DNA of 64,000 nt, from positions 89,962,001 through 90,026,000 of the forward strand of contig OX597822.1 in assembly GCA_951406725.2 (NCBI GenBank), in the 5' to 3' direction. Below, piece after piece: positions 3,216-60,562 of the stretch. Both the position numbers and the translations under genes were made by a program. Source of the DNA: Octopus vulgaris. Lineage: Eukaryota. The notes under the pieces were generated by a model that saw nothing but the letters and a program-made list of their open reading frames with translations, searched no databases and had not been told where the DNA came from. Numbering within the stretch: the stretch's first letter is position 1; every line of letters starts with the position of its first letter.

Positions 3216-3259
3216 ACACAACATTTCGGCTGATATACCCTCCAGCCTTTATCAGGTGT
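3216..3259 (-). ncRNA. Minimal type-I hammerhead ribozyme motif (decayed)
   Basis: ACAC-CUGAUAA-AGGCUG(gaggguauau)CAGCC-GAAA-UGUU-GUGU. Stem I ACAC/GUGU and stem II GGCUG/CAGCC pair. Confidence 0.7.
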
Positions 3260-3320
3260 CTTGGGGAAATTTCGAACCTGGGTTCTCATTCCTAAGGTAT
3301 TTTCCGATGATGATGATGTT

Positions 3321-3352
<32 letters not shown>

Positions 3353-3366
3353 TGTTGTTGTTGTTG

Positions 3367-3920
3367 GGTGAGAGAGCAGTGCATGCCATCAAAGTGACAC
3401 TGGGGTAAAATTTACAAGGCCCAGTTTATCCATCATGACTACCCGTCTGATAAGGGTACACTAGGCACATGCTTCACAACCATATGTGCGCGACATGGTG
3501 ATCTCATATCAAAATAAACAGTGCATGACCTTGCAGGTGAGGCCCAGTTAGAATTTTCTTGTGGTCAAGTAACCCATCCCGCTCAAAAGGTCCTTGAATA
3601 AGGATTGTTTAAGGATGTAGAATGAAGCACCCATGTTTCCAAAGGTGAATTATCCAAACCTCTAAGAATTCCTTTCAACACAGCTATGATGCTCCTCCAC
3701 TACTTCTGCTCATGATCAGAGATGCGCATATTGTCAGCCAACTAAAGGACATGATCAACTGGTTAAGGTCAAACAACTGACAAGCAGATCTGTGATATTG
3801 AGCAGAATATTTACTGTAGCCCATCTTTTATACCAAGGCAAAATAATGTAAAAGATAACACTTCCAATCAGTTAAGATCAGAATCCATGAGAGCCACTGT
3901 CTGGTACTGCATCAGAGCAT
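3367..3920 (-). mobile_element. Unclassified interspersed repeat embedded in triplet microsatellite
   Basis: Shares about 260 bp with 31840-32100. Both copies abut (ATT)n/(GTT)n tracts. Confidence 0.65.
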
Positions 3921-4020
3921 TATTATTATTATTATTCAGATCACTGCTTGGAATCGAACTCGGAATCTTGGGGTTAGTAGCTCGTGCTTAACCACTACGT
4001 CACTATGCCACTATGCCCAT

Positions 4021-4300
4021 AGGCATATGGCGTAGTGGTTAAGAGTGTGGGCTACCAACCCCAAGATTCCGAGTTCGATTCCAGGCAGTGACCTGAATAA
4101 TAATAATAATGATAATAACAACAAAATCAAAAAATACCTTAGGAATGAGAACCCAGATTCAAAATTTCCCCCAAGACACCTGATGAAGACTGGAGGATAT
4201 ATCAGCCAAAATGTTGTGTTAACAACAAACAAGATGAGGACAAATATCCATCAATTGTAAATAATGTACATAATTCCTCATCTCTTAAATATAGAACTGA
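4021..4300 (+). mobile_element. tRNA-head/hammerhead-tail short element, plus copy
   Basis: A box TGGCGTAGTGG, B box GAGTTCGATTCC, then (AAT)n, then a tail containing a hammerhead motif. Confidence 0.75.
4176..4219 (+). ncRNA. Minimal type-I hammerhead ribozyme motif (decayed)
   Basis: ACAC-CUGAUGA-AGACUG(gaggauauau)CAGCC-AAAA-UGUU-GUGU. Its core mutations differ from those of the 3216 copy. Confidence 0.7.
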
Positions 4301-8995: not shown

Positions 8996-11491
8996 AGCTA
9001 AGAGCACTAGACTCCTTGAAAGAAAGCAAACGAATGTATACGAAAACAAGGACGAAAAAAACAGAGAAATGGTACACAATTACAAATACAAACAACAGGA
9101 CATTAACAATAGGTGTCTTTCGACTAAGGACGAATTAAATTAAACTGGCATGTGTGGAAGTGAAGCCTTATGGCAGGAACATAAGAGATGAAAATCATGG
9201 GAAGGAATATAAGAGATGCTGCACGGATGGTAGTTGAACCAAGAAAGAAAGGTCAGGCTTGGCAGAACACTGGTCACGTGGAAAGAGAGGAGAGAGGTAG
9301 GGGGCAGAGGGATTGAAGAATTAGGGAGGGACGAGAAAGATAGAAAAAGAAAGGGACAGAGAGAGGGAAAAAAGGAGGGAAAGTGAGAATGAAGGGTAGG
9401 CAAATGTGTGAGAGGGAGAGTGAGAAAAAGAAAAGTGGAAAGAATGAAGAAAGTGTGAAGGGGCTGAAAGAAAGAGTAAAAGAATTGTACAGAATTTAGA
9501 TATATATATGTACTTATATATATATATATGTACTTACATACCGACCACAAGCGTACATACTCCGCTATATGTATATAGAAAAAACGAAAACAAAAAATGG
9601 AACAAGAACATAACAGGCAACAACAAATATACATGAATCAGTTGACAATAATTGTACTTATAGAAAAAGATTTAATTTTAAGAAATTAATATTTACTTTC
9701 TTTAAGATTCACTACAGTAGTTTCTTTGAGATTCACTAAGAGCTACTACCAAGAGTTTTTCTTTCTGTGACTAATGGAAAAATTTCCATAAAATGAGAAT
9801 TTTTTAAAGAAGATCAGTCAGTACATAACCACATCATTTATTTATTTAAATTAATGCCATTGGCTCACTTTTGTTATTAATTATAGTTATTTTTATAGTT
9901 TAATTATGCAAAATATTACTTGACCCAAATTTTTACAATCCATTTTTTATTATGTAAATATAACTTGTATTTAACTGACCAAACTAAGTTTGATAGACTA
10001 AAGTTTTTGTGATAAGGTAGTCTGTAGTTGTTCCTTTACCTCCAAACAAAGATCAGTTATTTCCATCAGAATGTCAATCAATTTTGTAAAATCAATTCTT
10101 AATTTCTTGAAACTATCTCTTCTTTTCTCTGAGACTCACTAAGAATTGCTTTTAGAGTTTTGTATTATTTCTCTAAGAAAGAAAGTCTAAAATAATACCT
10201 TAAAATCTTTTTCATTGTCTTCAGATTTTACAAAAAATAAAAGCTCTATACAAACAATATTATCAAAAATATAAAAATAAATTAAGAAAAGCATAGAAAT
10301 ACTTGTTTTCTTTAATATTAAATTAGATATGACAGAAAACTTGAGAAGGATGTAGGAAGAAAATATTATTTAATAACTCATCACCAAAACTACCTATAAC
10401 CTCTGATCTGCTATTATGCTGTGTTTTTCTTGCAATTATTTCTATTGATCATGTACCTCTGACTGTAGTTATATTTTACAGTTTTACATTAAATTATATT
10501 TTACAGTTTTACAGTCATGATTCTTCCTTTTATTGCATATTTGATCTAATTTCCTACACTCTTTTCAAAACATTTTGCTCAAATCTTCATTTATACAATT
10601 ACATTCATTGGAACTCTCTTCCACTCATTAAATTATATAATTTTACCATATCTAATCCCTATAGGTTTTGTTATGTTCCATTTTATTGAAAAAGTAAAAA
10701 ACTAAAGCAAAGAAGCTTGTATATTTCATAATGGATTTTTTTTGTTGATAAAATATTGAAGTATTTGCACACACTTATCAATAACTATTTCATATCTATT
10801 TCTAATAAGTAGGCTGCTTATGTGTTTCAGTTCATTTTCACTATAATGAAAGGCATTCCAGTCATAACCATTCTGTCATTCAGTGTACTCATTCTTTTGC
10901 CAAAATGGCATGTGAGATTTCAAAGAGATATTTCTAACAGATCAAGAAACTACATTAAAGAACTGTTGTTGGGTTATTATTAGAATATTGTGCTGGTGTT
11001 GACCAATGAAAATATCATTCAAAGATTTTGATTAAGATTTTATTTTAAAAATGAGCATTTTGATGCAGGCAGATTAGCATTAAAAAGGCAGTGATACAGC
11101 TACTATTAGTAAATTTGGTTTTTGTTACCAGATATTTACCAGAATCAGTGTTAACTTAATTTCAATGATTAGAGATAGGTGATGATGTACAGAAAATAAA
11201 GTCCTTCTCATATCCAAATTATATTTGTCTTATTTTATCTGCCAGGAACATTAATTATTTACTATTAAAAGCTGAATAAAATATACATTAAAATAATAAG
11301 TGTCTAATGAAGCAGAACACTCTATTACCATTTAAATTAAACTTGTAATTAAACACTTTAAAGAATAATTTCTAAATTTGAAAAAAATCAATTTAATACA
11401 TTTGTAGTATCAAATACATTTTAAACAGCAGTTGATTATATGCCACCGAGGCTTGCTTCTTGAACATGTCAGGATTGTATGTAACAATATA

Positions 11492-11597
11492 TCAATCCTT
11501 AATTATCGATCCTTCTTCATTGAATTGGCCAGTAGATGTTGACTTGTATTCATCTAAACTGTCCTTTTCACTTGCCTCAGTACCATCGACTTCAGTT
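11492..11597 (-). CDS. L1CAM/neuroglian-like gene, terminal coding exon E
   Basis: Acceptor ttttcatatacag. Translates TEVDGTEASEKDSLDEYKSTSTGQFNEEGSIIKD*, resembling the L1-family tail DSL.DY...GQFNEDGSFIGQY but stopping before FIGQY. Confidence 0.88.
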
Positions 11598-11778
11598 CTG
11601 TATATGAAAAAAAAAATTTTTAAATATAGTAAAAATGAAACATTTTGTCGACACATTATTGAATATGATTAACATTAGATTATAGAAACCAGAATTTATT
11701 ATAGAAATGTCAAATCAAAATAAACCCAAAAGTCAATTCTCAAAACTAAAATCTTTGATATGCTTCATTCCATAACTG

Positions 11779-11866
11779 CCATTTCTGAAGAGTGCAAGAT
11801 TACATAATTGGACTGTTACTTAACATTCTGTTGAACACCTAGTGTGAAACTGATTGGTAAGATTGG
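11779..11866 (+). ncRNA. Decayed hammerhead-like motif with long loop II (pLTR fragment in the last intron of the L1-like gene)
   Basis: ccauuu-CUGAAGA-GUGCAAG...CUAGUGU-GAAA-CUGAUUGG-UA-agauugg. The stems rely on several G-U pairs. Confidence 0.5.
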
Positions 11867-12099
11867 CCATAATGGATATATAATACTGTATACTTCAACT
11901 AATATACCCACTCTACTGACTAATGTACAAGTGCTTTTTTTCCTGATATTGATGATGATGCTGATGAGGATAGAACAATTATGAGTATTAATGTGTGTAT
12001 GTGCGTATGTGTATGATTATATACATGTGATGCATTTATTAACATAAAGTGAGTGTGTAATGGATTCTTAGATGGCTATATATATATATATATATATAA

Positions 12100-12350
12100 A
12101 TCACCCATGCCAGTATCATATAAGAAGCACCCATTCCAGTGCCATGTAATTACACCCATGCCAGTGCCACATAAAAAGCACCCACCACACTCTGTATAGT
12201 GGTTTGCATTAGGAAGGGCATCCAGCTGTAGAGACCAAACCAAATGAGACTGGAATCTGTTGCAACTCCCTTGCATGCTAGTTCTGGTCAAACCGTCCAA
12301 CACATACCAGTATGGAAAATGGATGTTAAAAGATGAATGATGATGATGAT
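12100..12350 (+). mobile_element. Short 3'-end copy of the RTE LINE
   Basis: aggaagggcatccagctgtag...ggatgttaa followed by (GAT)n. Confidence 0.8.
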
Positions 12351-12379
12351 AGAACAATCAAAAATACAAAATATAGAGA

Positions 12380-13175
12380 AAAAACAAGAAAGACAACAAA
12401 AAGTCAAAAGGATGGAAAAAAGAGTGGTTTTAACATTTTGAGCAATGGCTTTTCATCAGAAAAAGTCCAAAAAGGAAAAAAAAATGTTCAGAAGTATATG
12501 TGTCATTACATAGTGGAAAAATAATTGACCTAAAGTGGAGAGGGGTAGAGAAAGTTGTTTTTGAAGGCAGGAGAGTGCATAAATAGCCAGTGTATGTGTG
12601 TCTGTGTGTTTATGTTTATGTGAGTGATGTGTGTGTGTGTGTGTGAGGTAGTGGAGCAGACAGGTTAATAGCAGTAGTTAGATTTGGTGATCAAGAGGCA
12701 AGTTGACGCATGTGTGAGTGCATCAGTGTTGCTGTGTGTGTAAATATGTGTTTGTGTGTGTACATGAGTGCATATGGATGCATGTATGGGTGTGTATGTA
12801 TATTTGTATTTATGTGTTTTTGTATGTATGTGTGTGTATCAATGCAGGTGAAGAGTTTTTGTATATGCTAGGTTATGGAAACGTGTGTGTGTGTGTGCAT
12901 GCGCCAGATAGATATGTAGTATGCAGAGCAGATGTTGAAGAGTGAAGATGTAATGCTGTTCTTGGTGAAGCCTAATGGTAGGGGTTCCATGATGCCAGGC
13001 CAGACTGAAGACAGTAAAGTGTTCAGTGGTGTGGTTGGTAGAGCAAAGATGATTGGCGGTGAGAGTACTTTTATGGAGGCAGATATCTAATAGATGTTTG
13101 GTAAATCTGTCAACTAGATAATGGCCAGACTAACCAACACATAATGAGTCAAAGAGTGCATTTGAGGTAATAGAT
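12380..13175 (-). mobile_element. Degenerate Penelope-like element (GIY-YIG remnant, CA-rich UTR, hammerhead)
   Basis: Minus-strand 12920-13170 reads ..VG*SGHYLVDRFTKHLLDI..RLHQEQHYIFTLQ, homologous to the C-terminus of the 20577-21353 ORF. Confidence 0.75.
12428..12464 (-). ncRNA. Decayed minimal hammerhead motif
   Basis: uuuu-CUGAUGA-AAAGC(cauu)GCUC-AAAA-UGUU-aaaa, at the 3' end of the PLE relic. Confidence 0.55.
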
Positions 13176-13349
13176 AATGACAGAAGAGATACAAGATAAG
13201 AGTGTGTACAGGTACGTGTTTGTGTGCATGTATGTGTGCATGCACGTATATAGGTACATGTATATGAGAATATGTTTGTATATATGTATGTTTGTAAAAA
13301 TTTACATGCTTAAAGTTATCTACATCTATCTAAATCAGTACATGATTTT

Positions 13350-13588
13350 GTATGCCAGTGGTACGTAAAAAGCACCAATCTGATCGTGGCTGTTGCCAGC
13401 CTCGCCTGGCACGTAAAAAGCACCCACTACACTCACAGAGTGGTTGATGTTAGGAAGGGTATCCAGCTGTAGAAACTCTGCCACATCAGACTGGAGCCTG
13501 GTGCAGCCTTCTAGCTTCCCAGATCCCGGTCGAACCATACAACACATGCTAGCATGGAGAACGGATGTTAAACGATGATGATGATGAT
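13350..13588 (+). mobile_element. Short 3'-end copy of the RTE LINE
   Basis: Same 3' UTR and (GAT)n tail as 18780-18980. Confidence 0.85.
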
Positions 13589-13700
13589 TATGAGTATTAA
13601 TGTGTGTATGTGCGTGCATGCACGTGTATGTGCGCATGTGTATGATTATATACATGTGATGCATTTATTAACATAAAGTGAGTGTGTAATGCATACTTAC

Positions 13701-13740
13701 TTCTGTTCTTCTTCATCATTAGAAAGGCAATCATCTTTCA
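13701..13740 (-). CDS. L1CAM/neuroglian-like gene, exon D: 40-nt cytoplasmic exon
   Basis: Acceptor tcttatcttatcag, donor gtaagt, phase 1 in and phase 2 out, which bridges exons C and E in frame. Translates VKDDCLSNDEEEQ(K). Confidence 0.8.
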
Positions 13741-14309
13741 CTGATAAGATAAGAAAAATAGAGGACATTGTTATTACAGAATTCTAAAATATTCATTAAT
13801 TTAAACTAACAATAATTCTAAGTATGATGATTCAGTGCACAAAAACTGTGCACAAAGTTCAAGGATTTGAAGAGTGTGGAACAAATTCTAAGCCACTATT
13901 GCTCTCAAGTCTACTCTGACTCAAACTAGCAGCACCTGTTAGGGTTTCAGCTATGGGTAAACTAATATGTGAATCCGTGGGAGTGAAGTGATGGACCTCC
14001 AGTTCCATTTAGAACTTCGTTCTAGAAGATAAACTTGTATAAAAAATCTGAAGTGCAGTTTGGTTCTGGTCGTCTCAACCTGTTGTGCCACTGACTAAAT
14101 AGCCAATTGTACTGGAATGTAAGTTCAGTGCTGTGTATGCTTTAACCATTCAAAACAAATTCATGCTTGTTGGATTCTTGGAGTGTTTGCACAAGTTTAG
14201 GAAAAGGTTTTACTCAGTCATGAGTTGACTACCACCATATGTGTGTGTGTGTAGGACCTCGTTTGACCCTACCTGTTTGAATTTGAAACCAAATCTAGAA
14301 ATTCTCCCT

Positions 14310-15307
14310 AGTCATATGACCTATTGTCTTCTGTGATGTGATCTTTGCAGTGTGGGGTTGCAAATTGTCCTGATGAAACATCACACCTTTTCGATTCACT
14401 AAAGCGGGTCTTTTTTTTTCAAAGCTTGGTTCAAATGCTCTAATTACTGACAGTAGACTTGAGCATTGATTGTTGCATTAGGTGGTAACAATTCAAAGTG
14501 AATTACTCCTTTGCAATCCCACCAGATAGAGAGAAGAACCTTTTTCCCATGAGGTTCCCTTCTTGGTTGTGGTTGAGCTCTTTACCAAGTCACTGTTTAC
14601 AATGTTTAACATTTCGATAGAAGATCCATTTTTCGTTACCAGTCACAAGTCTATCCAAAAAGGGTGAAATGAGTTTGCGAGAATGGAGAGAAGAGCAGAT
14701 GTCAACTTGGGATTTGCAGTAGCTTTCGGACAATTCATGAGGCACCCATTTTCCAAGTTTAGGAACCTTTTCAAGTTGTCGAAGATGATAATGAACAGTT
14801 CTATGGTTTGAACTAAGCTTTATTGCCAAATCTTCAACTGATAATGAGGATTTTTTTCAAGTAATAATTCAAGGAGCTTATCATCAAACTCAACTGGACA
14901 CCCTGTTCAATCTTCATTTTCATCAAGGCTGAAATCTCCACTTCTGAATTTTGCAACCCATCTTTTGCAAGTTCTTTCATTCAAATGTTCTTTCCCATAA
15001 ACAGAGTGTATGTTTCAAGTTGCTTCGGCTGCAGAGTTTCTTGTTTCCTTTTTTGTATTCAAAAAGCATTATGTACTTCAGATGTTCTTTGGATATGTCC
15101 ATGTTAGAAAGGGTTTTAAATACACCCTGACAACTTTGTTCCATACAATGGCACCACATCACAAGAAAAGAATGCTTTACAGCAGTATTCCCCAACAATC
15201 TATCACATACCTAACAAATGATGGTACCTGAACTCAGAATATAAAAGTCTGTAACTAAATACTATAAGTTATTTTATCCAATGCACAACTGATTCTGATA
15301 CAATCTA
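14310..15307 (-). mobile_element. Degenerate mariner transposon
   Basis: KLGKWVPHELSE and LDRLVTGNEKWIFY (D,D34D first-Asp region); N-terminal EHLKYIMLFEYKKG. Confidence 0.9.
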
Positions 15308-15667
15308 TGTTGATATAATAATTACAGAGTAATGAATACCAGAATTAGTAGAACACTCAACAACATGCTTAGCAGTATTTAGTTACATCTCTTTATATCT
15401 TAAGTTCAAGTACCACCAGGATCAGGTTTCTGTTACATTGTATAAAATACTCAGAGATACTGAATTTTGTCTTTATAATCTTATAATCTTATCCCCAGGT
15501 CTTAGTGTAATATCAATAATAGCATTAATGCTTGAGATAAATAAATGCTGGCTTCTTTTGTGGTGTTATGAACTATGTTTTTATGTCACTGAAATGGGAT
15601 GTTCAATGTTTATAGGTAAAGAAATAATTTCATAGATATTACAAAACAGAAAAAAAGAAAAACTTAC

Positions 15668-15793
15668 CATAGTATTTGCTGCCTCTATCACACTTGATGA
15701 TACAAACAAGGATGAGAATTAGAAGAAGCACACAAATAGCAATCATCATCACCACAAACCAAGTAGTTTGAAGAAAATCCAAATCCATTTCAC
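15668..15793 (-). CDS. L1CAM/neuroglian-like gene, exon C: transmembrane helix and juxtamembrane motif
   Basis: Acceptor tttcaaag, donor gtaagt, 126 nt. Translates GEMDLDFLQTTWFVVMMIAICVLLLILILVCIIKCDRGSKYY(V), matching the L1-family pattern WF..MM....CII...RGGKY.V. Confidence 0.92.
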
Positions 15794-16059
15794 CTTTGAA
15801 ATAGATACAAACAAATAAAATAGTCTTTAGCAACTAAAATCTCTTTTGCTTTTATAATAGAATTAATGATTCAATGTTCTTGAAAGTTTTTACCCAAAAC
15901 AGGTAAAATAATCCATCAGTTACAGGATATTGTTTAATTCTCTAAATTACATGGCTTCGAAAGATCTGAATGTGAGCATAATGTCTAAAGTCGATTAGAT
16001 TCTGCAAAAAGACATTAAGAAGACAAAGACATCAATGTTTCAAGTATCTTATCTCATTT

Positions 16060-16500
16060 ATGAGGGTGGGCTGAAAAGCTCATAGGTTGACTATGAAGAA
16101 GTGATGATACAGCTGTAAAACCTTGCATGCATTAATTTCAACTCCTCTAATTAATAACTGCATTCTTTCTTTCTTTCTAGGTGAACTGATATCTGACTGT
16201 TCAAAGAAAACTTCAAAAGTAACTAGTAGTGACTTCTCTTCAGTAGTCAACAAAATTTGACATCGTGGTGTTATCAAATACCTGCAGGGAAAGCATTTAG
16301 CCCCCAAGGGCATTCATGCTGACATTAGAGGATGACACTTCAGCTTTAGCAACTTCAAACGTGGGCAGTTGAATTTAAGAGGGGAAGAGAGAATCTTAAA
16401 GATAACCCAGCATATGGATGTCCTGCAATTATCACCACTAAGGAAAACATTGATTGCGATCATCACATAGTGATGGATGACAGGTGATTGACTACATAGA
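16060..16500 (+). mobile_element. 5' part of a mariner element
   Basis: TIR-like start tatgagggtgggctgaaaag, and transposase N-terminal remnants (HRGVIKYL..K.L.PK.IH.D; EFKRGRE.L.D). Confidence 0.65.
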
Positions 16501-16584
16501 GAAAAGGAAATATATATAGATATATATATATATATACATACATATACATACATACATATACACATGTGTATATATATATATATA

Positions 16585-18947
16585 CACCAAAGAGCTGAGG
16601 TATTTCGGATTGCCAGTGTGTCAGAGAAAATAGTGATGTTACAGGAGAGAAATGTGTCTGCATGGATGATGGGGCACTTGCTTTTACTGTTAGTGAAAAG
16701 AAAGAGGCTTGGAGAAGCCATTATGAAAGACTGCTGAATGAGGAGAATGAATGGGAGGAGGAGAGCCTGCCAAATGTTGACCCAGTAGAGGGACCAGCCA
16801 CCCGAATAGAGAGCTCCCTTGTAGTTAAGGCAATTAAGGATATGAAACCAGGTAAAGCCCCCGGCCCATCAGGAATCACTGCTGAGATGCTTAAAACAGC
16901 TGGCTATGTGGGCTATGGCCTAGTCACCTGCATTGTAAACCAGGTAGTTCATAATGGAGTCATACCCAATGACTGGCGTAGCAGCACCATAGTCAACTGC
17001 TACAAGGGTAAGGGTGATGCTCTAGATAGAAATAACTACAGGGGTATCAAACTGTTGGATCAGGTGATGAAGATCACAGAGAGGGTCATAACCCATCACA
17101 TTAGGGAGAGAATTTGCTTAGATGAAATGCAGTTCGGTTTTGTGCCGGGTAGAAGCACCACTGATGCTATATTCCTGGTCCGACAACTGCAGGAGAAGTA
17201 CCTAGCTAAAGATAAACCCCTCTACAGAGCTTTTGTGGACTTGGAGAAAGCCTTTGACAGGGTTCCCCCGTTCCCTTATCTGGTGGTCGATGCGGAAACT
17301 GGAGATTGACGAATGGCTAATAAGGGCTGTACAGGCTCTATACAGAGAGGCTGTCAGCAAGGTTAGGATTGGCAACGAATATAGTGAAGAATTCCGGGTA
17401 GAAGTAGGTGTGCACCAAGGCTCAGCCCTCAGTCCCTTTTTATTCATCATAGTCCTCCAGGCAATAACAGAGGAATTCAAAACAGGATGCCCCTGGGAGC
17501 TCCTCTATGCTGATGACCTGGCTCTCATAGCAGAATCACTACCGGAACTAGAAAAGAAATTTCAGGTGTGGAAGCAAGGGTTAGAATCAAAGGGCCTTAG
17601 AGTAAATGTAGCAAAGACCAAAGTTATAGTAAGCAGAAAGGCGAACTCAGCACACACCCCCTCGGGCAGGTGGCCCTGCTCGATCTGTAGGAAAGGTGTA
17701 GGTAGAAACTCCATAAGATGCACCCAATGTAAGCTATGGACGCACAAGAGGTGCAGCAACATTAAAGGGAAATTAACAGATAAGATAGCTTTCATGTGCG
17801 GCAGATGCACAGGGACAATAGACACCACAGACACTCAGAAAACAGATTCCATCACACTCCAGGGAGAGAAACTAGAAGTAGTTGATAGTTTCCGCTACCT
17901 GGGTGACCAAGTTAGTAGTGGAGGTGGATGCACAGAGAGTATCACCACTAGAATACGAATAGCCTTGGCAAAGTTCAGAAAGCTCCTACCCCTACTGGCG
18001 ACAAAGGGTCTCTCCCTCAGAGTGAAAGGTAGATTGTATGATGCATGTGTGCGAACTGCCATGCTTCACGGTAGTGAAACATGGGCTGTGACTGCAGAGG
18101 ACATGCGTAGACTTGAAAGAAATGAAGCTAGCATGATCCACTGGATGTGTAATGTCAGTGTGCACACACGACAGAGTGTAAGCACCCTGAGAGAAATGCT
18201 GGATATAAGAAGCATCAGATGTGGTGTGCAAGAGCGACTCTTGCGATGGTATGGTCATGTGCTGCGGATGGATGAGGAGAGATGTGTGAAGAAGTGCCAC
18301 TCCCAAACAGTTGAAGGTATCAGGGGGAGAGGTAGACCCAGGAAGACATGGGATGAGGTAGTCAAGCATGACCTCAGAGCGTTGGGCCTCACTGAGGCAA
18401 TGGCGAAGGACTGCAAAGACCCGGGCTGCTTCCTACATCAGTTCCGCATAGCCCCTGCCCATTCAAAGTACCCCGGATCCCAGAACGTCCCACTGTGCTT
18501 GAGGAGACCTGTTGAGTCAAGTACATGAACATGAACGTCAAAATAAATATCAATGGAAATAGTAGTTGTGATGCCTGTGCCGGTGGCACATAAAAAGAAC
18601 TATCCGAACATGGCCGATGCCAGCGCCGCCCCGACTGGCTTCTGTGCCAGTGGCACATAAAAAGCACCATCCGAACGTGGCTGATGCCAGCGCCGCCCCG
18701 ACTGGCTCCTGTGCCGGTGGCACATAAAAAGCTCCAACCGACTGTGACCGATGCCGCCCCCCCCCCTGGCACCTGTGCAGGTGGCACATAAAAAGCACCC
18801 ACTACACTCGCGGAGTGGTTGGCGTTAGGAAGGGCATCCAGCCGTAGAAACTCTGCCAGATCAGACTGGAGCCTGGAGCAGCCCCTGGCTTCCCAGACCC
18901 CGGTCGAACCGTCCAACCCGTGCTAGCGCGGAAACCGGATGTTAAAC

Positions 18948-18980
<33 letters not shown>
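16585..18980 (+). mobile_element. RTE-clade LINE, 5'-truncated, near-intact reverse transcriptase
   Basis: KAPGPSG, NYRGIKLL, QFGFVPGRSTTDAIF, FVDLEKAFDRV, GVHQGSALSP, YADD, FRYLG and GRPRKTW motifs. One frameshift near 17270; (GAT)n tail. Confidence 0.95.
18560..18800 (+). repeat. Four approximately 60-70 bp tandem units in the RTE 3' UTR
   Basis: Repeated tgtgccggtggcacataaaaagcac unit containing a TGTGCC/GGCACA hairpin. Confidence 0.85.
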
Positions 18981-18983
<3 letters not shown>

Positions 18984-19174
18984 ATATATACACACACACA
19001 CACACATATATATGTGTGTATATACACATATATGTGTGTGTCACTCCCTGAATACATACCAAACATTCTACCTGATCAACGAATTTGTGAACTACTATAA
19101 ACACACACATCATACTAACACCATCCTGCCACACACAGTAGCAAAATGTACATATTATAATACTGTAATGCATT

Positions 19175-19285
19175 ATGTAACCTGATGAGGTTTCTTCTGC
19201 ACTGTGGAATGCATTCGATTTCATTATATCGTTCCCCATCCACATGGAAGCAGTACACATGTAAGCCGAAACAATCATCATGTTA
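19175..19285 (+). ncRNA. Hammerhead-like motif with long loop II (uncertain stems I and III)
   Basis: CUGAUGA-GGUUU...AAGCC-GAAAC. Stem II pairs, but the downstream stems are poor. Confidence 0.4.
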
Positions 19286-19584
19286 AATAAAGTTTACAGT
19301 AAATTCTGTCTTCCCTATCTACCATTTAAAATATACTAAATGTACACTGAAGAATTCCTTACATAGATCCTGTGGCTAAAGTGCAGTACCATGGATGATG
19401 CCTGGTAGCTGTATGTGTTGAACATGCTTTCAATGCACACAACTAGGGACATATGCAAAAGAAGGTTTGGATACTACATTCCAAAGCCTCCTATCTAAAC
19501 TTTAATTTTAAAATAACCTATATATCTATATCTATACATATATATACATATATATACATATATCTTAATACACACACACACACA

Positions 19585-19838
19585 TGTATGTATGGTGGTT
19601 GTCTACTCCTTATGACCACCTCCTGTACCTTCACCTTAGAACCATCATGGCATCTGATGTGGCTTTTTGAAGCAGGCAATGTTCTGAAAAGACACCCACA
19701 TAGATTGCACATCTGATTTGGACCACCAAAAGCTGCAGTTAAGTTCTGATCTCTGTGAATCTTAAAATGTCTTTTGAGGCCTCCATTAGATTTGCAGACC
19801 TTATTGCATACATGGTATTGAAAGATGTGCACAGACAT
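19585..19838 (-). mobile_element. LINE 3' fragment with two C2H2-like fingers (RTE/BovB-type C-terminus)
   Basis: VCNKVCKSNGGLKRHFKIH and CNLCGCLFRTLPASKSHIRCH. No splice signals or TGEKP linker; ends in a microsatellite. Confidence 0.5.
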
Positions 19839-19860
19839 ATATATATATCTGTGGCCATTG

Positions 19861-19920
19861 GAGTTTGATGAGTCATCTATAAAGCAAAGTATTTTATGGA
19901 TGTGAAACCATTGGTCACTC
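19861..19920 (+). ncRNA. Type-I hammerhead ribozyme (C3U variant)
   Basis: GAGU-UUGAUGA-GUCAUCUAUAAAG(caaagua)UUUUAUGGAUGU-GAAA-CCAUUGG-UC-ACUC. All three stems pair and the cleavage triplet is GUC. Confidence 0.8.
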
Positions 19921-20033
19921 TATGACCAGCCATACAACTAACTTCCTGTATATAAATTGCAGCTCTAATTTTTAGAGTATACTTCTTTTTTGGATATATG
20001 ATCTACTGACAACTACACACACACACACATGTT

Positions 20034-20070
<37 letters not shown>

Positions 20071-20072
<2 letters not shown>

Positions 20073-21353: not shown

Positions 21354-21384
21354 GACCGTTTTTTTTTTTTTTTTTTTTTTTTTC

Positions 21385-24100: not shown

Positions 24101-24266
24101 TGCGTTACCAACCTTGTCTCCACTCTTTTGCCTTTAAAAACCCACTTTGCTCTTGTTATCGTAAACATCCGCCTTTCACCATGTGCTTCTGCTAACACCA
24201 GCCGTTTTTTTCTCTATCTCCGTTGCCCGCTCCGGGATCTTTCTTTCCTCTCTCTTCCTTCTTTAT

Positions 24267-24301
24267 GTTTCCGACGAAGAGCTCCGCTCGAAACGTCATA
24301 C
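24267..24301 (+). ncRNA. Minimal hammerhead variant (CCGACGA core) at the PLE 3' end
   Basis: guuu-CCGACGA-AGAGC(ucc)GCUC-GAAA-CGUC-auac, with palindromic ACGU stem III. Confidence 0.7.
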
Positions 24302-24387
24302 CTCCCTGCTTCCATTTCCTGAGCGCCTATTAATAATAATACTGTAATTGTTCCCTTGTTGTTGTTTTTTTGTTTCCCGTTTGGATT

Positions 24388-24423
<36 letters not shown>

Positions 24424-24548
24424 TCTAAATAATAACAATAATTATAAGCTTAAAGCTTATAAGTGATCACCATGTATTGGCTAAATATGGCCTAATCTTC
24501 TCCATCTAACACTGAAGGGCACTCATGACATTTTTTTGGAGTCACATG

Positions 24549-24650
24549 TATGGATCAAAACAATTTGATCCAAGTTCTTGGCTGAGGATTAGCATTACAC
24601 TTTGAAACTTAAAGTACCAAGGAATTTGGATCAAACTGTTTTGATCCATA
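24549..24650 (+). ncRNA. Hammerhead-like core closed by an approximately 33-bp inverted repeat
   Basis: tatggatcaaaacaatttgatccaagttcttgg-CTGAGGA-(weak stem II)-GAAA-CTTAAAG-TA-ccaaggaatttggatcaaactgttttgatccata. Confidence 0.55.
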
Positions 24651-27697: not shown

Positions 27698-27757
<60 letters not shown>

Positions 27758-43677: not shown

Positions 43678-43729
43678 AACCACTACGATTGTTTCGTGTC
43701 AGCACATCTTAGACATTCTTCAGGTGGTT
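43678..43729 (-). ncRNA. Type-I hammerhead ribozyme
   Basis: Mirror copy of 43849-43900 with one loop III change (GAAAC-AAUC-GUA). Confidence 0.8.
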
Positions 43730-43848: not shown

Positions 43849-43900
43849 AACCACCTGAAGAATGTCTAAGATGTGCTGACACGAAACGATCGTAGTGGTT
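43849..43900 (+). ncRNA. Type-I hammerhead ribozyme with canonical core
   Basis: AACCAC-CUGAAGA-AUGUC(uaagaugugcu)GACAC-GAAA-CGAUCG-UA-GUGGUU. Six-bp stem I, palindromic ACGAUCGU stem/loop III, GUA triplet. Confidence 0.88.
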
Positions 43901-45625: not shown

Positions 45626-45746
45626 ATATAATTATATTTAGTAGAAAGAATAGCTATAACTCTTTGACTGCTATTTCTAAATTTGGTGTGTGGTGAGGCA
45701 AATCGTTGCTAAACCCTTAATTACTTAGTATATATAATTATATATA

Positions 45747-45777
45747 TTGATGAAGGGCAAATACCCTGAAACATGTC
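45747..45777 (+). ncRNA. Minimal hammerhead motif (C3U), 5' strand of stem I lost into (TA)n
   Basis: UUGAUGA-AGGG(caaaua)CCCU-GAAA-CAUG-UC, with palindromic ACAUGU. Confidence 0.65.
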
Positions 45778-45948
45778 TGAAGTTGCCTAATCAGCAAGGG
45801 GAAGCGGCTGACCTCCCCTGTTCGAAGGTTATAATGGGCACAGGTTGGTGTGTCATATAGCTAGCTAGATGCGATGACCTCTTGGAGCTAATCAATGGCA
45901 GCTTTCATCCTATATTTATGGACTGCCATATTTGCTTGGCGATAACTA

Positions 45949-47940: not shown

Positions 47941-48082
47941 ATTATTATTATTTTTATTATTATTATTATTGTATTTTGTTTTGATTTTTATTGTAAAATT
48001 ACGTATTTTTATATTTATTTATATTTTCTTACAAGATTATATACATATATTTATTTATTTAATTATTTTATTGTTTTTATCT

Positions 48083-48170
48083 TGGGCCTGAAAAGTGACT
48101 ATATTTAAATTGAATTGATTTTACTGTTATCAGTTTGAAAATATAGCCACGAAACAAACACGTGTAGTCA
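48083..48170 (+). ncRNA. Decayed hammerhead with long stem II in an AT-rich pLTR
   Basis: gggc-CUGAAAA-GUGACUAUAUUU...AAAUAUAGCCAC-GAAAC(AAAC)ACGUG-UA-guca. Confidence 0.6.
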
Positions 48171-48409
48171 TTTTACCAATTATATACTTTTTATTTATTA
48201 TTTAGTACTTTACTTAATTATTGGTATATGTTTTTATCGCATATTTAAATTTTTTTCTATATCATTAATTATATCATTGTTGAATTGATAAAAGGTAGTT
48301 CTTCTCTAATTTATATACATATATTATATATTGTGATATTTGATTTAGTATTACTAAATTGAATTTTTCCCTGTAAGTTTGGAATAATATTCCCTAATAT
48401 TATTATCAT

Positions 48410-50384: not shown

Positions 50385-52360
50385 CTGAACCATCAGTGAA
50401 ATTCATCTAATAATTTCTTGTGAAAATAACACTAAATTTGCCAATTTCTCAAATATCACTCACAACTTAGTTGCAAATCTATATTACCCTTTTCATAAAC
50501 CCAATGAATTTACCACAATATGGCAACGTCGTATCCCTGCACTTAATAACATTGTAACTTATCTCTATTAGAATTTTAGGCTTATCAAATAAAGATATCT
50601 TTAACAATCATACCCCATATTATAACCCAGCTTTCCAGATCAGTGGTTTCCCCTGCACTCTAAGCCCTCAAAGGCCAGGAACCAGGAAAACCTATGGTTC
50701 TTGCAACCTTTCTCCCTTCTAGTTTCTTTAAAATTCTGTACTCAATTTCTCACCGCAACATAGCATCACCCTATCTTCAATAAATCATCTATTAAAATCT
50801 CCTACTCCACCATGCCTAACATAGGATCCATAATCGCCTCCTGTAGTAGATGCAAACTTCACCACCTGTCTTTGGGCCCTATGATCCATGCACCTGAACC
50901 CCATCTGATTCAATACCTGCCCCAATGATACTCTCCATACTACTACTGGTATTGTCACATATAACAGCAGTGATGCACCCTCCAAATCTAACATCAGTAG
51001 TAATAATACCTTTAGTGTTTCTTCAGAGGTAATTGATCATACAAACCAGACCTTTCCAAGGATCAGTTTCAACTCTAGTGCAAGGAAGGAAACTTGCAAT
51101 TTCTGGGTGTCTCAACTCTGACTTCTTGGATGTTTCTATCTATGCAAAAATGTAACCTACATTCCTATAGGCTGTACATTTGCTGCACTGTTGATTTCAA
51201 GCACTGCTACTGAGCATGAATGAATTCTGTCTCCAATCAAACTTCTAAATTATCTACCTCTCTAGCAACTCACATACACAACCTCAAGTTCCAAAACATC
51301 CCCAGTACCCTATCCTGGTCCATTATCTGTAGGGTTCCACTGTACAACCACTAGCCTTGGAGTTTGTAAACTGTTTAAAAGAGAATCACTTGCCATCCTT
51401 TGCAACCACAACCCTACCATTACTTAATAAATTCTCGGATATAATACTTTCATGTAAGTACAAATTCTACTCATCGTTTTCCCATTATGTAAAATCTATG
51501 TAATTCCCAAACTACAATATTATCTTAAGTTACTCTAGTAATATATCCCTTCTATTATATATTTCTTCTTATGATTACCTTTGCAAATCCCTTTTACCCA
51601 GCACATCTCCCTTTACAGCTACCCCATCCTCATACTTTCAATTCCTTTCCCATCTCCACTTTGCTTCTTCAACCAGAACTGCTTAACACCACCACCCCTT
51701 GCCTTTGCTATCAACCTATCCTTCTTATTTATTCTCATACTTCAATACTTTTCTTCCACTACCAACCAACCTATGGTCATTCTTTGAATCCACCTTTCGC
51801 CACCCTACTGGCATCTACTAGATCTTTTCCCTCCCTTCTCTCACTATTCCAATTCCCCTTCTCAGTTCGATAGCCCCACCATCTCTATTAACATATTTTG
51901 TCAAACCCAACAATGCTACCCCTTCCACTCATCTCTCCACTACTTCTTTCAATACCCTGTTCACTCACCTTTCCTTCTTTCTAATCTGACTCTCTTATCG
52001 CTTCTTGCTCTTCCTTGCTATAACACGCTTGACACCCCCATCAAACTGACTACTTCTTCCCTCCACTTCTGCTTGCCTTCCTTTTCACTCACTCCACCTT
52101 TAAATTTTCTTGCATTATGGCTTGAAATGTTAGATATCTATCTCTCCACCCTGAAGATGGAAATTGGATCTACCTAATGTTTATATGCTTCCACTACTGG
52201 TTGTATATCCTTGACTTTTTGTGAAATACATCTGTCAATACTATGAAGTAATTCCAAGGCCCCAGAAACAGCTGTCAGACCTATAACACCATACTTTCTC
52301 CCCTTCATTTTCTGTGTCTTTGTACAATGAATAAGTTTGCTCTGTTAATACATAAATATC
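50385..52360 (+). mobile_element. Highly degenerate Penelope-like element of a second type (possibly Naiad-like)
   Basis: IKISYSTMPNIGSII at about 50790-50835; LGVCKL..RESLAI and LNK.S.I remnants at about 51355-51450; pyrimidine-rich UTR; terminal hammerhead. Confidence 0.65.
52146..52280 (+). ncRNA. Hammerhead-like motif with about 100-nt stem-loop II
   Basis: CUGAAGA-UGG(aaa)UUGGA...UCCAA(ggcc)CCA-GAAA-CAGCUG-UC, with palindromic ACAGCUGU. Stem I is poor. Confidence 0.6.
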
Positions 52361-55632: not shown

Positions 55633-56910
55633 AATAGACTTTTCACTCATTTGCTTTGCAAGAAAAGAGCACATAAGAAATGAGTTATTAGATATGTCAA
55701 GCTAAGTGAAAATCGACGAAAGGAAAACTAATGCTAAAGTTTATGAAACTGAAAGGAAAACCCTAAAATAATAATTTTTTATGTTTACAATTCACCCAAT
55801 ACTAGGCCCCCGTGCAATACGTCCCCTACAAAGGTCGAGATCACATCACATAAGAACATTGCGACACAATTTCTTCACTGCAAATGGTCCTGCACATTTC
55901 AATGCCAAAGGAAATCAAAGTAGAAAAAGATCCCACAGCTTTCAAACGGTGCCGGGACAAATTCCTCCAGGAAATACCGGATAAACCGCCTACATCGGGA
56001 TACGTCTAAACCAACTCTCTGCTTGAGTGGTCCATGGTGTCCCGAAATAACTAACTAAAAGACTTTTCCAGGTGGTGTTATTGAGTTAGCCATGACCTGG
56101 ACCAATAATGGCCGAAACCAATCTATATATATATAAACCTTACTGAATAATTTCTTTTACATCTGCTACAAACAACAACTCTATATAATCACAAATTCCC
56201 ATCTCAAACACTAATGCAAAATGGAAGAGTAACAACAAAACAATTAGAAGCCACAGCAAAAATTCCGATTGTATCAAAACTTATTCCCTATTACAAACAA
56301 GGTGGTCGCAGTGTAGTGTAAAAAAGAAAATTTCTTTCACGATCACTAAACTTCTAACTAAAAGCATGTATAATAAACCGTTTACTGTACAGAAAATTAA
56401 GCAAAAAATATATCTCAAGAAATTTAGCTTCCACCTAAGAAAATTATTTTTAGATCATAAAACCATTTGAATTTAGCAATTAGTAACTAACTAATATAAA
56501 ACATAAGATTTGTAACGGCTTCTCTAATAAAAAGTTCATAATAAAGTTTTTCATTAATTTATTACACGCTAGCTAATGAGAAGAGACAAAATTAAGAGGA
56601 GCTACTATTCGAAAATTATTACAATAAAGAATTTCAGCGCTACATAAAAAGCATTTATCGTGTAATAATGAGAATATAAAGAATTAGACAACTTTGTTAT
56701 AAGCAAAATATTAACACGCTGAAAACAAATCAAGAGTTACAAAAGAAAACGTTTCAACGAACAGAACATTAACAGAAAATGAAATTTTGTTAGGAAAAAG
56801 TCAACATCCCACTCATAAGTTGCATTATTATTAATTTAGAAGTTATAACTGAAAAAATTGCTTTAATATGAAGCAAATTAAATCACAGGCAAGCTGAAAT
56901 AGCGATTTAC

Positions 56911-56917
56911 CTGCCAT
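56911..56917 (-). CDS. Candidate start-codon exon end (ATG GCA G|gtaaat) for the L1-like gene
   Basis: gcgaaATGG is a good Kozak context, followed by a CAG|gtaaat donor. Phase 1 matches exon A, and it lies in unique, CpG-richer DNA downstream of the neighbouring gene. Speculative. Confidence 0.3.
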
Positions 56918-57288
56918 TTCGCTCAATCTTCTGCCGAAACGAAAACTACATAACTGATTATTTTGCATCAATTTCCGTTTACCTTATTTAGGATGCAACA
57001 TCGTTTATATTTGTAATCCAATCTGAAACAAACTGTACTATACATAATTAGAGATATTTATAGCTATTTTATTTAGGAAAGTCTGGCTCATCGTCATAAT
57101 AATAATATCTACATTCTTATACACTATGTGTCAGCGTACTGCGATATGTAAACTGGATGTGCCCCAATATAATATATTTAAAAAATGCGAAAAATACAAA
57201 CCGCTAATTTTAATTACATCAAGTTTTGATATCTGTCTTTAAGATTCTGTGCATAAAAGCATTTCATATTAATAAGCCAAATTATATA

Positions 57289-57493
57289 CAGTAATCCCTC
57301 TCCATACCGCGGTTTATTATTTAAGCTTACGTCGATTCCTCCGTGGTGTTGTTTTGCATTTATAATAAAATAAATATATACAAATTATAAAAATAAAAAT
57401 AATGCAATACAATACTGTTTCTACTTCGCGTATTTTCACCTATCGTGCGAACTGAGGCGGGACGTAACACTAGCGATAGTCGAGGGATTGCTA
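57289..57493. mobile_element. Tigger/pogo-like MITE
   Basis: TA-cagtaatccctc ... gagggattgcta-TA terminal inverted repeats. Confidence 0.7.
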
Positions 57494-60443
57494 TAAATAC
57501 CGTTTGAAAGCACATTTAAGAAATTTTATGGACAAAATATTTGCTTACTAGTGTATCACGAAATAAAAAGAACGGGACCAGTTTTAATGAAAACCACAAA
57601 AGCATCGCGAGTGATGTCTCATCAATTGTGGAGTTTTTGCGGGTTTACAATAAGGGAACGGATACGTTTATGTATTAATGTCTTACAGAATGTCTCACAT
57701 GTTTGGTGCTTCTTTTTTTTTTTTTCTACTGATCTTATAGCAATGAGTCGGGGTTTGAAACTAAAACAGTTTGGTTCACAAGATGACGCACAATTTGTAG
57801 GGGACGTACTTAGCGATTAAATCTACTTAGCTCATTGCTGATAAAAAAAACAAAAAAACACTCAACCCCAAAAGGTTCAAAATTTCTTACATTCCACAGC
57901 CCTCTTCTCTAGATAATAATTACTAACTCCATTAGTGGGAATACCACAATTATTTTGAAAACAGTAAGATGATTTGAAGTTTATTACAGTGCATGTAATA
58001 TATATCTTTTGAAATAGTATTTTCTTTGTCTACATAGGTAGAATTAAAAGTGCAGTCATAGGAGACATCTAAAAGGTAAAGGCCTTGTTATACACTTGTC
58101 ACATTTAACTTCAGAGTTGTAATCTACTTTCATTTTGTCAAGAAGTAAATCTCAAGTATGGAATGAAATCGAAGATTTAATCAAGCTACAATATTCTGCT
58201 ACTGTACAACGTTGATAAAGCTTCATATTTTAATAGCTGTATTACTATCTTATTTTCACATCAGTGAGCGAATTGTAGTAGCTACCCCATAAAGCTGTGG
58301 ATTCTAGGAAAAAAAAAAGTTATGTAACGGTTAGTACTTCGTTGCAATCAAGAGTCACCAATTGTGAGAACTGTTCATGCGATGGTGAAGGCTGCAATTC
58401 TTTAACTTGAGGTCACCAATTTGTAACGGTTAGTATTGTTAAGGTATTGGTTGCCAGTGTACAAGATAGAAGAACAGTGATTGAAGTTGTAAAGAGATAT
58501 TTATTTACTGGTACTTTGTATATATCCAAAACTACGACGGGTTGGTATATATAACTAATAAATGGAAAAGCATGCGGGATAAAAAAAGTTAATTTCGGCT
58601 GGTATGTGTGTACACGATCTCATAGTAGTATATATAGAGAGAGATATGGTAAAGTTACAGAGAAAAGAAAGTTAGTGAAAGTGAGAGTGGTAGGACGAAA
58701 CAGCTGCTTAGTTGGTGAGTTACCATAGTTGTCCCTTTGTGCCTTTTCCTTTAGAGATAGCGTTTTCTTCAGCCGGTCAGCCAGACTCGGTTTTCACCAA
58801 CTAATTCCTTATTCAAGCACTCAGGCTCTTACCCAGAGGAGATGACTTTAGCTTACGGAGTTCTTGTTTTCATAACTATCCAAAACCAGAATAGACCTGT
58901 TAAGTGAAACTTGGCGATCGAGGATCGAATCCACGCCATGCCCGCATGAAGCTACTACAGTTATATAGATGTAACCATGGCTGTTGAATAAAGAAGTTCG
59001 CATCGTAACTAAATGTTCCGGGTTCGGACCAACTGCATAGCACTTTGGGCGAAAGTCTTCTACAATAGCCTTGGACTGATCAATATTTTGAATCAAATTT
59101 GCTAGTTAGAAATAGTCTGGAAGTCCATTGCATGTGTGCGCGTGCGTGCATGTGTGTGTGAGCGCGTGAATTTTATGCCGCTTGAAACCGCACTTACCAG
59201 GAAACAAAAATGGGGTGAAGACAATGATATAAAAGCCTCATCAGTTTTTAAAATTTTTTATCAACATAATCATAATCTACATTGCTGTAAATGTGTCTGC
59301 AACATTTCATCAACCCTTTCCTGGATTATTCCAAGATATTTCGAATTTTGATAATGTTATTTTTTTTGCAAAAGCACGAGAAAACTCCTGAAAATATACA
59401 TGTTATGAAATGGGCCCTAACGTGAGATCATGTGGTTTCCAAAGCTTGCTGGATCACCCCAATACACACACGTTGACTAGTGAACTTTAACGTTTGGTAG
59501 CCATTTTTGACAGTTTCTAGTCAGTGCTCGAAGGGAGAGCACGCATGAATGAATATACAGCTTGCTCACTGGAGTTATTGTTCTTGATTTTGTTTTTGTA
59601 CTTTCTGATATTGAACCCATGCAATGAAAAACGAGGAGTATACGAAGTGTGAGGCATCTTTGCCACGGAGGAAGAGGAGTCTAAGGTTTCAGTTCACAGA
59701 AATGTAAGACAAGTCAACTATGCAACCAGTATGAAAATAGGAGAGAAAGAGAGAAAGGCTGGTTACAAGTCACATGCCAACAGTAAGCAGAGGAGAAAGA
59801 GGGCAAGAGAGAGCGACAGAGAGAAAACAATGGAAGGGAAGGAGAAAATCTAGAAATAGAAGAGGGCGAGAGAGAGAGAGAGAGAGAGAGGGGGGGAAAT
59901 GAGAAAGAGGGAAGGCTAGAAATAGAGTCGCACGGATATATAAAGAATTGATTGCAATGTCACTGCAACGATTTTTGTTTCAATTCTTACAGGTATTTCA
60001 CAAACTTTGCAAGGAAACATATTTATTGGTCAAAATTCAGCCTATAATTGAATACTTGTTCCACCTGCTGAACTCCGTCCGTCCATCTGTTTCTTATGTT
60101 ACGTTCGTCCAGTGGTCGAGGGACCCTTTCTGTTTGTTATTTCCTCGTGTTTGTATATGTACATTCGTTTGCCTTACTCTGGGGCTTGGTACTTTCAGCT
60201 TAGGCCCTTGGCCCAGCTGGTTTTGAGTGGTGTCGGAGATGGTTGGGTAGGGCTACATGGGCATTTGGGACTCCGACTGAGGGGGCTGTTGGCTGTGGAT
60301 GGTCTGTGTATCTTATTTTGTCCTGTTTGTTGTTGTGTTATTGTCCTTTTCCTGCTTCTTGTGCTTTGGCGGTTTCTGTTTGTTGTTTATTGCCTTTGAT
60401 TTATATATATAAAGCAAAGTATAGATAATATTGTAGTAAATTC

Positions 60444-60562
60444 GACTTACAGCTGTTTCTGACAGTTATTATAGTTCATTGACCAGTTTATTCAATCAGT
60501 CCACTGATTGGTTGAGAAAAATTGAACGACCTTAAAGAACTAATGCTATCTTTATCAGAGTC
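60444..60562 (-). ncRNA. Hammerhead motif with long loop II (G8A change)
   Basis: GACU-CUGAUAA-AGAUAG...CUGUCA-GAAA-CAGCUG-UA-AGUC. Stem I GACU/AGUC pairs and stem III is palindromic. Confidence 0.65.

Follow-up and report, generated by a model that had tools for sequence, protein, structure and literature searches.

Sixteen hammerhead motifs of Penelope-like element type, from 13 dispersed repeat families, in a 64-kb window of the Octopus vulgaris genome

Small hammerhead variants with a reduced stem III, associated with Penelope-like elements (PLEs), have reportedly been described by Lunse, Weinberg and Breaker in RNA Biol 14:1499 and are said to cleave as dimers. The analysis presented here concerns 16 hammerhead motifs in a window of 64,000 nt of the Octopus vulgaris genome, the window being the whole stretch analyzed (contig OX597822.1, positions 89,962,001 to 90,026,000; G000:C9:89962001-90026000 of a 2.80-Gb assembly in 227 contigs). 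The motifs resembled the minimal hammerhead ribozymes (min-HHRs) of metazoan PLEs in type-I order, CUGANGA and GAAA boxes, an extra base after A9, a palindromic 15.2-16.2 region, a stem I of as little as 2 bp, a U3-A8 variant, many families per genome, and mostly single truncated copies with opposite-strand pairs 100 to 700 bp apart (Cervera and De la Pena 2014, PMC4209133). Reverse transcription of PLEs begins inside the RNA, and min-HHRs cut weakly, as dimers, with catalytic mutants inserting in vitro (PMC11167929, PMC4209133). Unlike the 2,000 to 9,000 hammerheads per genome in the metazoan survey, the octopus density was ~50 intact cores per Mb, figures that are not strictly comparable because the descriptors differ; stem II domains of 39 to 107 nt and palindromes of 8 to 10 nt were common in the octopus, and its family-wide A6U and U4C cores do not appear in the available part of that survey (PMC4209133). 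The 16 motifs are very probably type-I hammerheads of the minimal kind, carried at the 3' ends of PLEs and their likely passengers (13 families in all) and present as truncated and mostly decayed insertions, of which the intact ones would cut RNA only as dimers through the palindrome. This reading is built on the observed topology, the division into families, the PLE frames linked to four of the motifs, 3' ends flanked by microsatellites, inverted partners, and genome-wide abundance.

The longer elements found with some motifs resembled the endonuclease-containing (EN+) PLEs Neptune and Nematis in having a reverse transcriptase (RT) followed by a C-terminal GIY-YIG domain, a CX2-5CxxC linker, and a hammerhead in the pseudo-long terminal repeats (pLTRs), and also in 5' truncation, partial tandems, inverted upstream copies, and TA targets (Craig et al. 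2021, PMC8557442). The 2.9-kb CA-rich 3' region of octopus family G was unlike the EN+ PLEs as far as that source describes them (PMC8557442). As in the Poseidon element PAc of the green anole, the hammerhead lay near the junction of pLTR and open reading frame (ORF) and copies ended at fixed downstream points (Frangieh et al. 2024, PMC11167929); for PAc, cleavage was measured and was unneeded for insertion in vitro, whereas the octopus evidence is genomic only (PMC11167929). Type-I hammerheads in noncoding repeats are also a feature of animal retrozymes that lack long terminal repeats (non-LTR retrozymes), of which up to 120,000 copies are reported in the axolotl and ~5,000 in a mussel (PMC7229834; 10.64898/2026.07.22.740005). 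In contrast to retrozymes, with their tandem arrays and two families per genome in these sources, the 16 motifs were dispersed singles or inverted pairs from 13 families. The kind is already known and the total has a precedent (axolotl), but density and family diversity appear higher. A literature search returned no octopus hammerhead census, the words ribozyme and hammerhead were absent from the main text of a 2026 Octopus vulgaris repeat annotation, and 235 hammerheads are listed in the available part of a giant squid paper (PMC6962438).

The initial annotation, made from the sequence alone, had proposed 16 hammerhead-like motifs, and all 16 were located on the strands and within a few bases of the positions proposed; they are confirmed as genuine copies of the PLE-end hammerhead motif. 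Type-I order with CUGANGA, GAAA, and NUH boxes and a palindromic stem III were found in all 13 families; the annotation had noted the type-I topology and, for most motifs, the palindrome, and its description of the stem II sequences as unrelated held except for families B, G, and N, which had one short stem II and the ACGU palindrome in common and which, judging from that stem, are related. A type-I descriptor tolerating one core mismatch picked up 8 of the 16 motifs at a score of at least 18, and this density was not matched in 30 local dinucleotide shuffles of the window (mean, 0.13 matches; maximum, 2). The other eight were missed because they were too decayed, too variant, or too long-armed. 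Family profiles matched exactly 16 places in the window, a count that follows by construction because window copies are in most profiles, as well as 37 places in 600 kb from elsewhere in the genome, the shuffle of which gave 0. A Rfam scan of the window (E ≤ 1) recovered 0 of the 16 hammerheads and returned only microsatellite-driven microRNA matches, and a crude look for rewired hammerheads across the window gave no candidate. The motifs, each named by the position of its C3 and its strand, were as follows.

3214..3261, minus strand: family A hammerhead 3255-, the inverted partner of 4180+; carries G8A and a palindrome eroded by CpG decay; predicted dead
4174..4221, plus strand: family A hammerhead 4180+; G12A, predicted dead; tRNA-like head and (AAT)n tract ahead
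11779..11865, plus strand: family K hammerhead 11785+; 54-nt stem II domain and 10-nt palindrome; intact core, G-U-weakened stems
12426..12465, minus strand: family N hammerhead 12459-; kin of B and G; G12A, predicted dead
19176..19285, plus strand: family D hammerhead 19182+; branched 79-nt stem II domain; breaks in the palindrome and in the first pair of stem I
19859..19922, plus strand: family J hammerhead 19865+; 9-nt palindrome; C3U with G8 retained; predicted attenuated
24265..24303, plus strand: family G hammerhead 24271+; family-wide U4C, U-U mismatch in stem I
24576..24622, plus strand: family M hammerhead 24582+; intact core and 9-nt palindrome; stem II of ~2 bp
30378..30417, minus strand: family B hammerhead 30411-; family-wide A6U, intact ACGU
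32227..32266, minus strand: family B hammerhead 32260-; A6U; palindrome decayed to AUGU; PLE remnant upstream
43678..43729, minus strand: family C hammerhead 43723-; inverted arm; one change breaks the palindrome
43849..43900, plus strand: family C hammerhead 43855+; intact core, 6-bp stem I, 8-nt palindrome
45741..45783, plus strand: family E hammerhead 45747+; family core U3-A8, here U3-G8, without the stem I 5' strand; predicted dead
48082..48172, plus strand: family H hammerhead 48088+; 56-nt hairpin stem II; G8A and 4-nt stem III insertion; predicted dead
52145..52282, plus strand: family I hammerhead 52151+; stem II domain of 107 nt; break in the first pair of stem I
60442..60564, minus strand: family F hammerhead 60558-; 92-nt stem II domain; G8A, predicted dead

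Only 43855+ was fully canonical. Two copies, 24271+ (U4C) and 30411- (A6U), were identical to the variant type of their families, 11785+ and 24582+ had an intact core with weakened stems, and the remaining 11 carried damaging lesions; most of the 16 copies are predicted to be dead.

Each of the 13 families proved to be a dispersed repeat in a genome search with one representative per family, with 264 to 3,087 first-look candidates apart from family N (15). Twelve families gave 40 to 83 matches each from 40 candidates scored, and family N gave 15, its 14 nonself matches being weak. Four motifs (12459-, 24271+, 32260-, and 52151+) capped PLE frames, as had been claimed; those upstream of 24271+, 32260-, and 12459- were found by tblastn with the family G protein as the query. 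The PLE parts in the window were the following.

20070..24421, plus strand: 5'-truncated copy of a young PLE of 6.2 kb, capped by 24271+ (99.1% over 4,354 nt)
33083..35020, minus strand: frameshifted PLE RT-GIY-YIG remnant upstream of 32260- (mostly 54 to 77% protein identity to the family G element)
12935..13144, minus strand: remnant of GIY-YIG with 12459- as its cap (tblastn, family G protein as query)
50388..51500, plus strand: decayed PLE RT-thumb/GIY-YIG remnant of a second clade, upstream of 52151+

The copy at 20070..24421 comprised the RT end, a CX4CX2C linker, GIY-YIG (frame end, 21353), the 2.9-kb CA-rich 3' region, and a pLTR. Among the full-length copies of the 6.2-kb family G element that were fetched, the motif stood at both ends in four of four, identity over 3.3 kb was 99.6 to 99.9%, and two carried an open RT-GIY-YIG frame of 884 codons that included the CX4CX2C linker. 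The protein matched RVT_1 (E = 0.001) and GIY-YIG (E = 0.011), both below curated cutoffs, and the motif was present genome-wide as 1,484 exact 32-mers. The element is presumed to be Neptune, a clade label that follows from the linker and from sequence motifs; the 50388..51500 remnant is likewise presumed to be Nematis-like from its motifs. At 7 of 19 other loci of the 50388..51500 element, a family I motif of the same orientation stood downstream, and family D lay 1.8 kb behind a GIY-YIG frame at one locus (L366). The frame link was firm for 4 of the 13 families (B, G, I, and N) and suggestive for D and M; all but the firm four may represent tails of PLEs or passengers that are nonautonomous. 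TA runs stood at a fixed distance 3' of the motif, for example in 23 of 25 family B loci and 14 of 20 family G loci. Inverted partner arms were found in 15 of 25 loci of family A, 10 of 20 of J, 6 of 20 each of E and M, 4 of 20 of K, and 3 of 20 each of H and F; the family C loci in this count include three duplicated places. Elsewhere in the genome, a second young PLE family (L364; G000:C16:20.84 Mb) had an open 781-codon frame in many copies, with a relative of family D 1.6 kb downstream of the intact frame in L364, and a near-complete PLE of a third type was interrupted by single stops (L329:3861-6380, minus strand).

Pairing was scored after requiring the core letters alone, in 660 kb made up of 60 evenly spaced 10-kb samples and 60 kb adjacent to the window. 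With a stem III of 8 nt there were 27 matches, of which 19 were Watson-Crick palindromes (23 counting G-U pairs), 21 had three stem I pairs, and 20 had stem II; five shuffles gave 0 to 3 matches and at most one paired feature per shuffle. The classes with a 9- or 10-nt stem III were weaker, at 5 matches each, of which 2 had stems. In the first 100 genome matches listed, ~69 had a Watson-Crick palindrome at four unconstrained positions (chance, ~7%) and 14 more had one with G-U pairs (scored by eye), and those palindromes used 12 of the 16 possible words. For the family E pattern, the first 100 of 421 matches comprised 96 U3-A8, 4 C3-G8, and 0 mixed combinations. Covariation was therefore evident between families, and changes within families were mostly decay. 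Families D and I had a stem I of only 2 bp, that of G contained a mismatch, and stem II was weak in M. Within-family folding of the long arm was significant in H (16 of 17 copies with z < -2) and partly so in D (6 of 13).

Abundance was estimated from a sample of 600 kb in evenly spaced 10-kb pieces, with four shuffles as a control. The sample held 45 descriptor matches at a score of at least 18 (one per shuffle), falling into 32 sequence clusters, and 32 intact-core matches at any score (0 in the four shuffles). The 30 intact-core matches scoring at least 18 corresponded to 50 per Mb, or ~140,000 genome-wide (bootstrap, 75,000 to 229,000), and to 109,000 when one tandem array was left out; with family-profile matches added, the estimate was ~317,000 (229,000 to 415,000), decayed copies included. 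Across the whole genome, three exact patterns, which are blind to pairing and whose classes may overlap slightly, gave 80,147 matches, compared to 5,699 in controls: 22,735 versus 2,544 for ACGU with a stem II domain of 8 to 38 nt, 17,309 versus 1,542 for an 8-nt stem III with a stem II domain of 8 to 38 nt, and 40,103 versus 1,613 for an 8-nt stem III with a stem II domain of 39 to 68 nt, so that half had the long arm. Among the 15 long-arm matches in the sample, 8 passed all three pairing tests and 14 were palindromic. The genome likely holds more than 100,000 intact-core copies, many in shapes that standard searches miss, and the supposition of a large, diverse, and under-annotated population was borne out by density, cluster number, and the empty Rfam result alike. 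The window itself was ordinary, since its 8 descriptor matches compared with 4.8 expected (P = 0.16) and it was rejected as a hotspot; the next 60 kb held 3. A union count (P = 0.017) was biased because the families were defined from the window itself.

The motif lay 50 to 200 nt inside the fixed 3' ends of the retroelement families. The source RNA of each family would be reverse-transcribed from a point ~50 to 200 nt downstream of the motif, so that even the shortest insertions keep it, which would explain why the motif outnumbers PLE frames. The palindrome would pair two copies, selection would act on the fold in source lineages and be visible between families, and inserted copies would decay neutrally through CpG loss, G8A, and G12A. 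For some lineages (U4C, A6U), cleavage itself seems to be weak or unnecessary. Several results weigh against this account. No secure link to a PLE reading frame was found for A, C, E, F, H, J, and K at the loci examined; the links of D and M came from one to four loci (one for M), and two D loci had upstream fragments of the other PLE clade, so that D points to two clades. An inverted partner was found in only 1 of 60 loci of B, G, and N. TA runs are common across this genome. Within-family long-arm folding was not significant for F, I, J, and K. Separately, a search for common upstream sequence gave no link between orphan families and frames, other abundant repeats dominating, and a PLE frame upstream of an E copy was not counted, as it probably belongs to another element with its own hammerhead.

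It is possible, though less likely than not, that the orphan motifs come mostly from nonautonomous retrozymes or tRNA-headed elements resembling short interspersed nuclear elements (SINEs), which would borrow PLE enzymes and in which the hammerhead would release short or circular RNA, and not from PLE pLTRs. Family A had a tRNA-like head, 22 of 56 copies being preceded by a B-box-like motif, and a look at its surroundings revealed no PLE frame. In two family C loci, arms of at least 2 kb were without a frame of at least 200 codons, and no PLE frame was found in the two long inverted family C loci or in one related locus. The genome sample also contained a retrozyme-like array (L262:2300-4560; G000:C1:20.00 Mb) made of ~359-nt units; it held seven canonical hammerheads, of which two were inverted relative to the other five. 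Retrozymes co-occur with PLEs (PMC7229834; 10.64898/2026.07.22.740005). Against such an origin, 0 of the 16 motifs lay in a tandem array, four stood behind PLE frames, and long noncoding 3' regions, like the 2.9 kb in family G, would keep a frame out of view in loci of 3 kb.

Ahead of family A, at 3900 to 4120 of the window (both strands), two tRNA-like heads lay in inverted orientation, with (AAT)n tracts and with motifs resembling the A box and the B box. At L322 and L323 (G000:C1:8.39 and 8.77 Mb) and at L331, hammerheads formed inverted pairs with spacings of 4.4 kb (family C kin) and 8.9 kb, with no PLE frame between the pairs of these three loci; L322 was one long noncoding CA-rich palindrome, and L323 was nearly the same.

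Core departures were family-wide in B (A6U), G (U4C), and E (U3-A8). Throughout the genome, the U4C pattern gave 13,266 matches, compared to 2,466 in the control, and a non-A6 pattern gave 33,088, compared to 9,683, most of its first 100 matches listed belonging to the A6U family with position 7 free to vary. In family G, U4C occurred together with the stem I U-U mismatch and with a competing helix that box 1 forms with the cleavage triplet; by rough sums in which tertiary contacts and proteins are ignored, its active dimer lay at about -4 kcal/mol versus -18 kcal/mol for two misfolded monomers, and the U4C core of family G is predicted to misfold. By the same rough energies, the active dimer was favorable or level for C, A, and B. 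The recent spread of family G and the very large A6U family would fit cleavage being dispensable. In another PLE family with a 6-nt palindrome (L369, L375, and L382), two loci had a U4C core and the third a canonical one, a pattern suggesting that U4C had more than one origin or that CpG decay restores the canonical letter. A literature search returned no A6U hammerhead in print (only a twister paper), although the dimer-variant literature may already list A6U, U4C, or long arms; for long or extended stem II in PLEs it returned only PMC4209133, with one "extended helix II" passage in the available text.

These variants bear on a further explanation, somewhat doubtful overall, in which the fold would be retained chiefly as a signal for RNA pairing or protein binding, cleavage being secondary or lost in some lineages. 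It would account for family G being young despite its U4C core, U-U mismatch, and competing helix and for the excess of the mostly A6U non-A6 pattern, and catalytic mutants were without effect on insertion of the anole PLE in vitro (PMC11167929). A U4C viroid hammerhead, however, has enough activity in vivo (PMC3088659), so slow cleavage by family G is possible. In addition, most families retained the full catalytic core, the U3-A8 covariation preserves the catalytic pair, and palindrome length did not track the rate of inverted insertion; as a predictor of inverted insertion it was rejected for want of a trend (family A, 4 nt, 15 of 25 loci; family I, 8 nt, 1 of 20). A still bolder statement is unlikely to hold in full: that this is among the densest and most varied natural hammerhead collections, with more than 100,000 intact cores, dozens to hundreds of families, and a dominant long-arm class, in which the most successful recent PLE lineages spread on noncutting cores, the fold being kept as a pairing or protein-binding signal, so that shape and catalysis come apart.

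With 0 of 16 window motifs recovered from Rfam, standard annotation undercounts these RNAs. The collection serves the open question of the role of hammerheads in PLEs, in which they are nearly universal, slow in vitro, and dispensable in one reconstituted system. It offers a natural series of canonical, U3-A8, U4C, and A6U cores, short and long arms, and a young family with intact full-length copies.

Six motifs were located in introns of one host gene, in keeping with the initial annotation, which had placed several copies within host introns.

9747..28922, minus strand: L1CAM/neuroglian-like gene, known span (Pfam matches and contig joins)

This gene was recognized by an L1CAM-family Bravo_FIGEY region at 11495 to 11668 (minus strand; Pfam, E = 2e-5) and a weak fn3 match at 28749 to 28922 (Pfam). 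Its exons included one ending at 11597 (Bravo_FIGEY), 13701 to 13740, 15668 to 15795, and one from ~26374. Contigs from two of four runs, presumed to derive from RNA, joined 11597 to 13701 and 13740 to 15668 over GT-AG introns, with a loose end matching the ~26376 exon. Pfam scans of 71 of 157 candidate minus-strand frames gave no further Ig or fn3 exons, and the 5' end of the gene was not found. Motifs 11785+ and 12459- lay in the last host intron, and 19182+, 19865+, 24271+, and 24582+ lay in a 10.6-kb intron. Six copies in introns of one gene, together with the conserved intronic hammerheads known in amniotes (PMC7229834), could point to adoption by the host for cutting or regulating the L1CAM-like pre-mRNA, which is nevertheless highly improbable. 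Five of the six were antisense and the lone sense copy, 12459-, had G12A, so a host role is unsupported; moreover, each copy was one of hundreds to thousands in its family, and two mRNA-like contigs joined the exons normally across these introns. At a density of tens of intact cores per Mb, such cores are to be expected in many introns, so that intronic strand bias becomes a direct test of cellular activity. A chance origin of the motifs in AT-rich repetitive DNA can practically be dismissed: half of the 16 motifs failed the descriptor, but intact cores numbered 32 versus 0 in four shuffles of the 600 kb, one exact pattern alone was found 40,103 versus 1,613 times, and each motif mapped to a family with intact or family-typical copies (only one such copy each for F, I, M, and N).

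A second minus-strand gene, encoding a GALNT-like glycosyltransferase, ended near 62.8 kb and was recognized by ricin-type lectin and Glyco_transf_7C matches; its exons, identified from domain matches, were as follows.

Window 62772-63133, minus strand: GALNT-like exon
L325:7770-7895, minus strand: GALNT-like exon
L326:7000-7119, minus strand: GALNT-like exon
L327:6244-6393, minus strand: GALNT-like exon

Repeat finding in the window was swamped by microsatellites. A 173-bp inverted repeat with a 2-nt spacer and TA tracts on both sides (43038 to 43385) resembled a miniature inverted-repeat transposable element or a fold-back element, and no hammerhead was seen in it. Two ~490-nt tandem units with internal 143-nt repeats (44180 to 45200, minus strand) contained a box-1 word and no hammerhead fold. 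A decayed LTR-retrotransposon pol remnant lay at 5190 to 6920 (minus strand; integrase match rve, E = 7e-11), and the segments at 1534 to 2405 and 30212 to 30382 (both minus strand) are taken to be Tc1/mariner-like transposase remnants from their motifs. RT remnants of long interspersed nuclear elements (LINEs), presumably RTE-like, were found at 16599 to 18528 (plus strand; RVT_1 and PHD-finger match), 40417 to 41580 (minus strand), and 48398 to 49673 (plus strand), and just beyond the window an 879-codon open endonuclease-RT LINE frame was present (L325:2-2638, plus strand).

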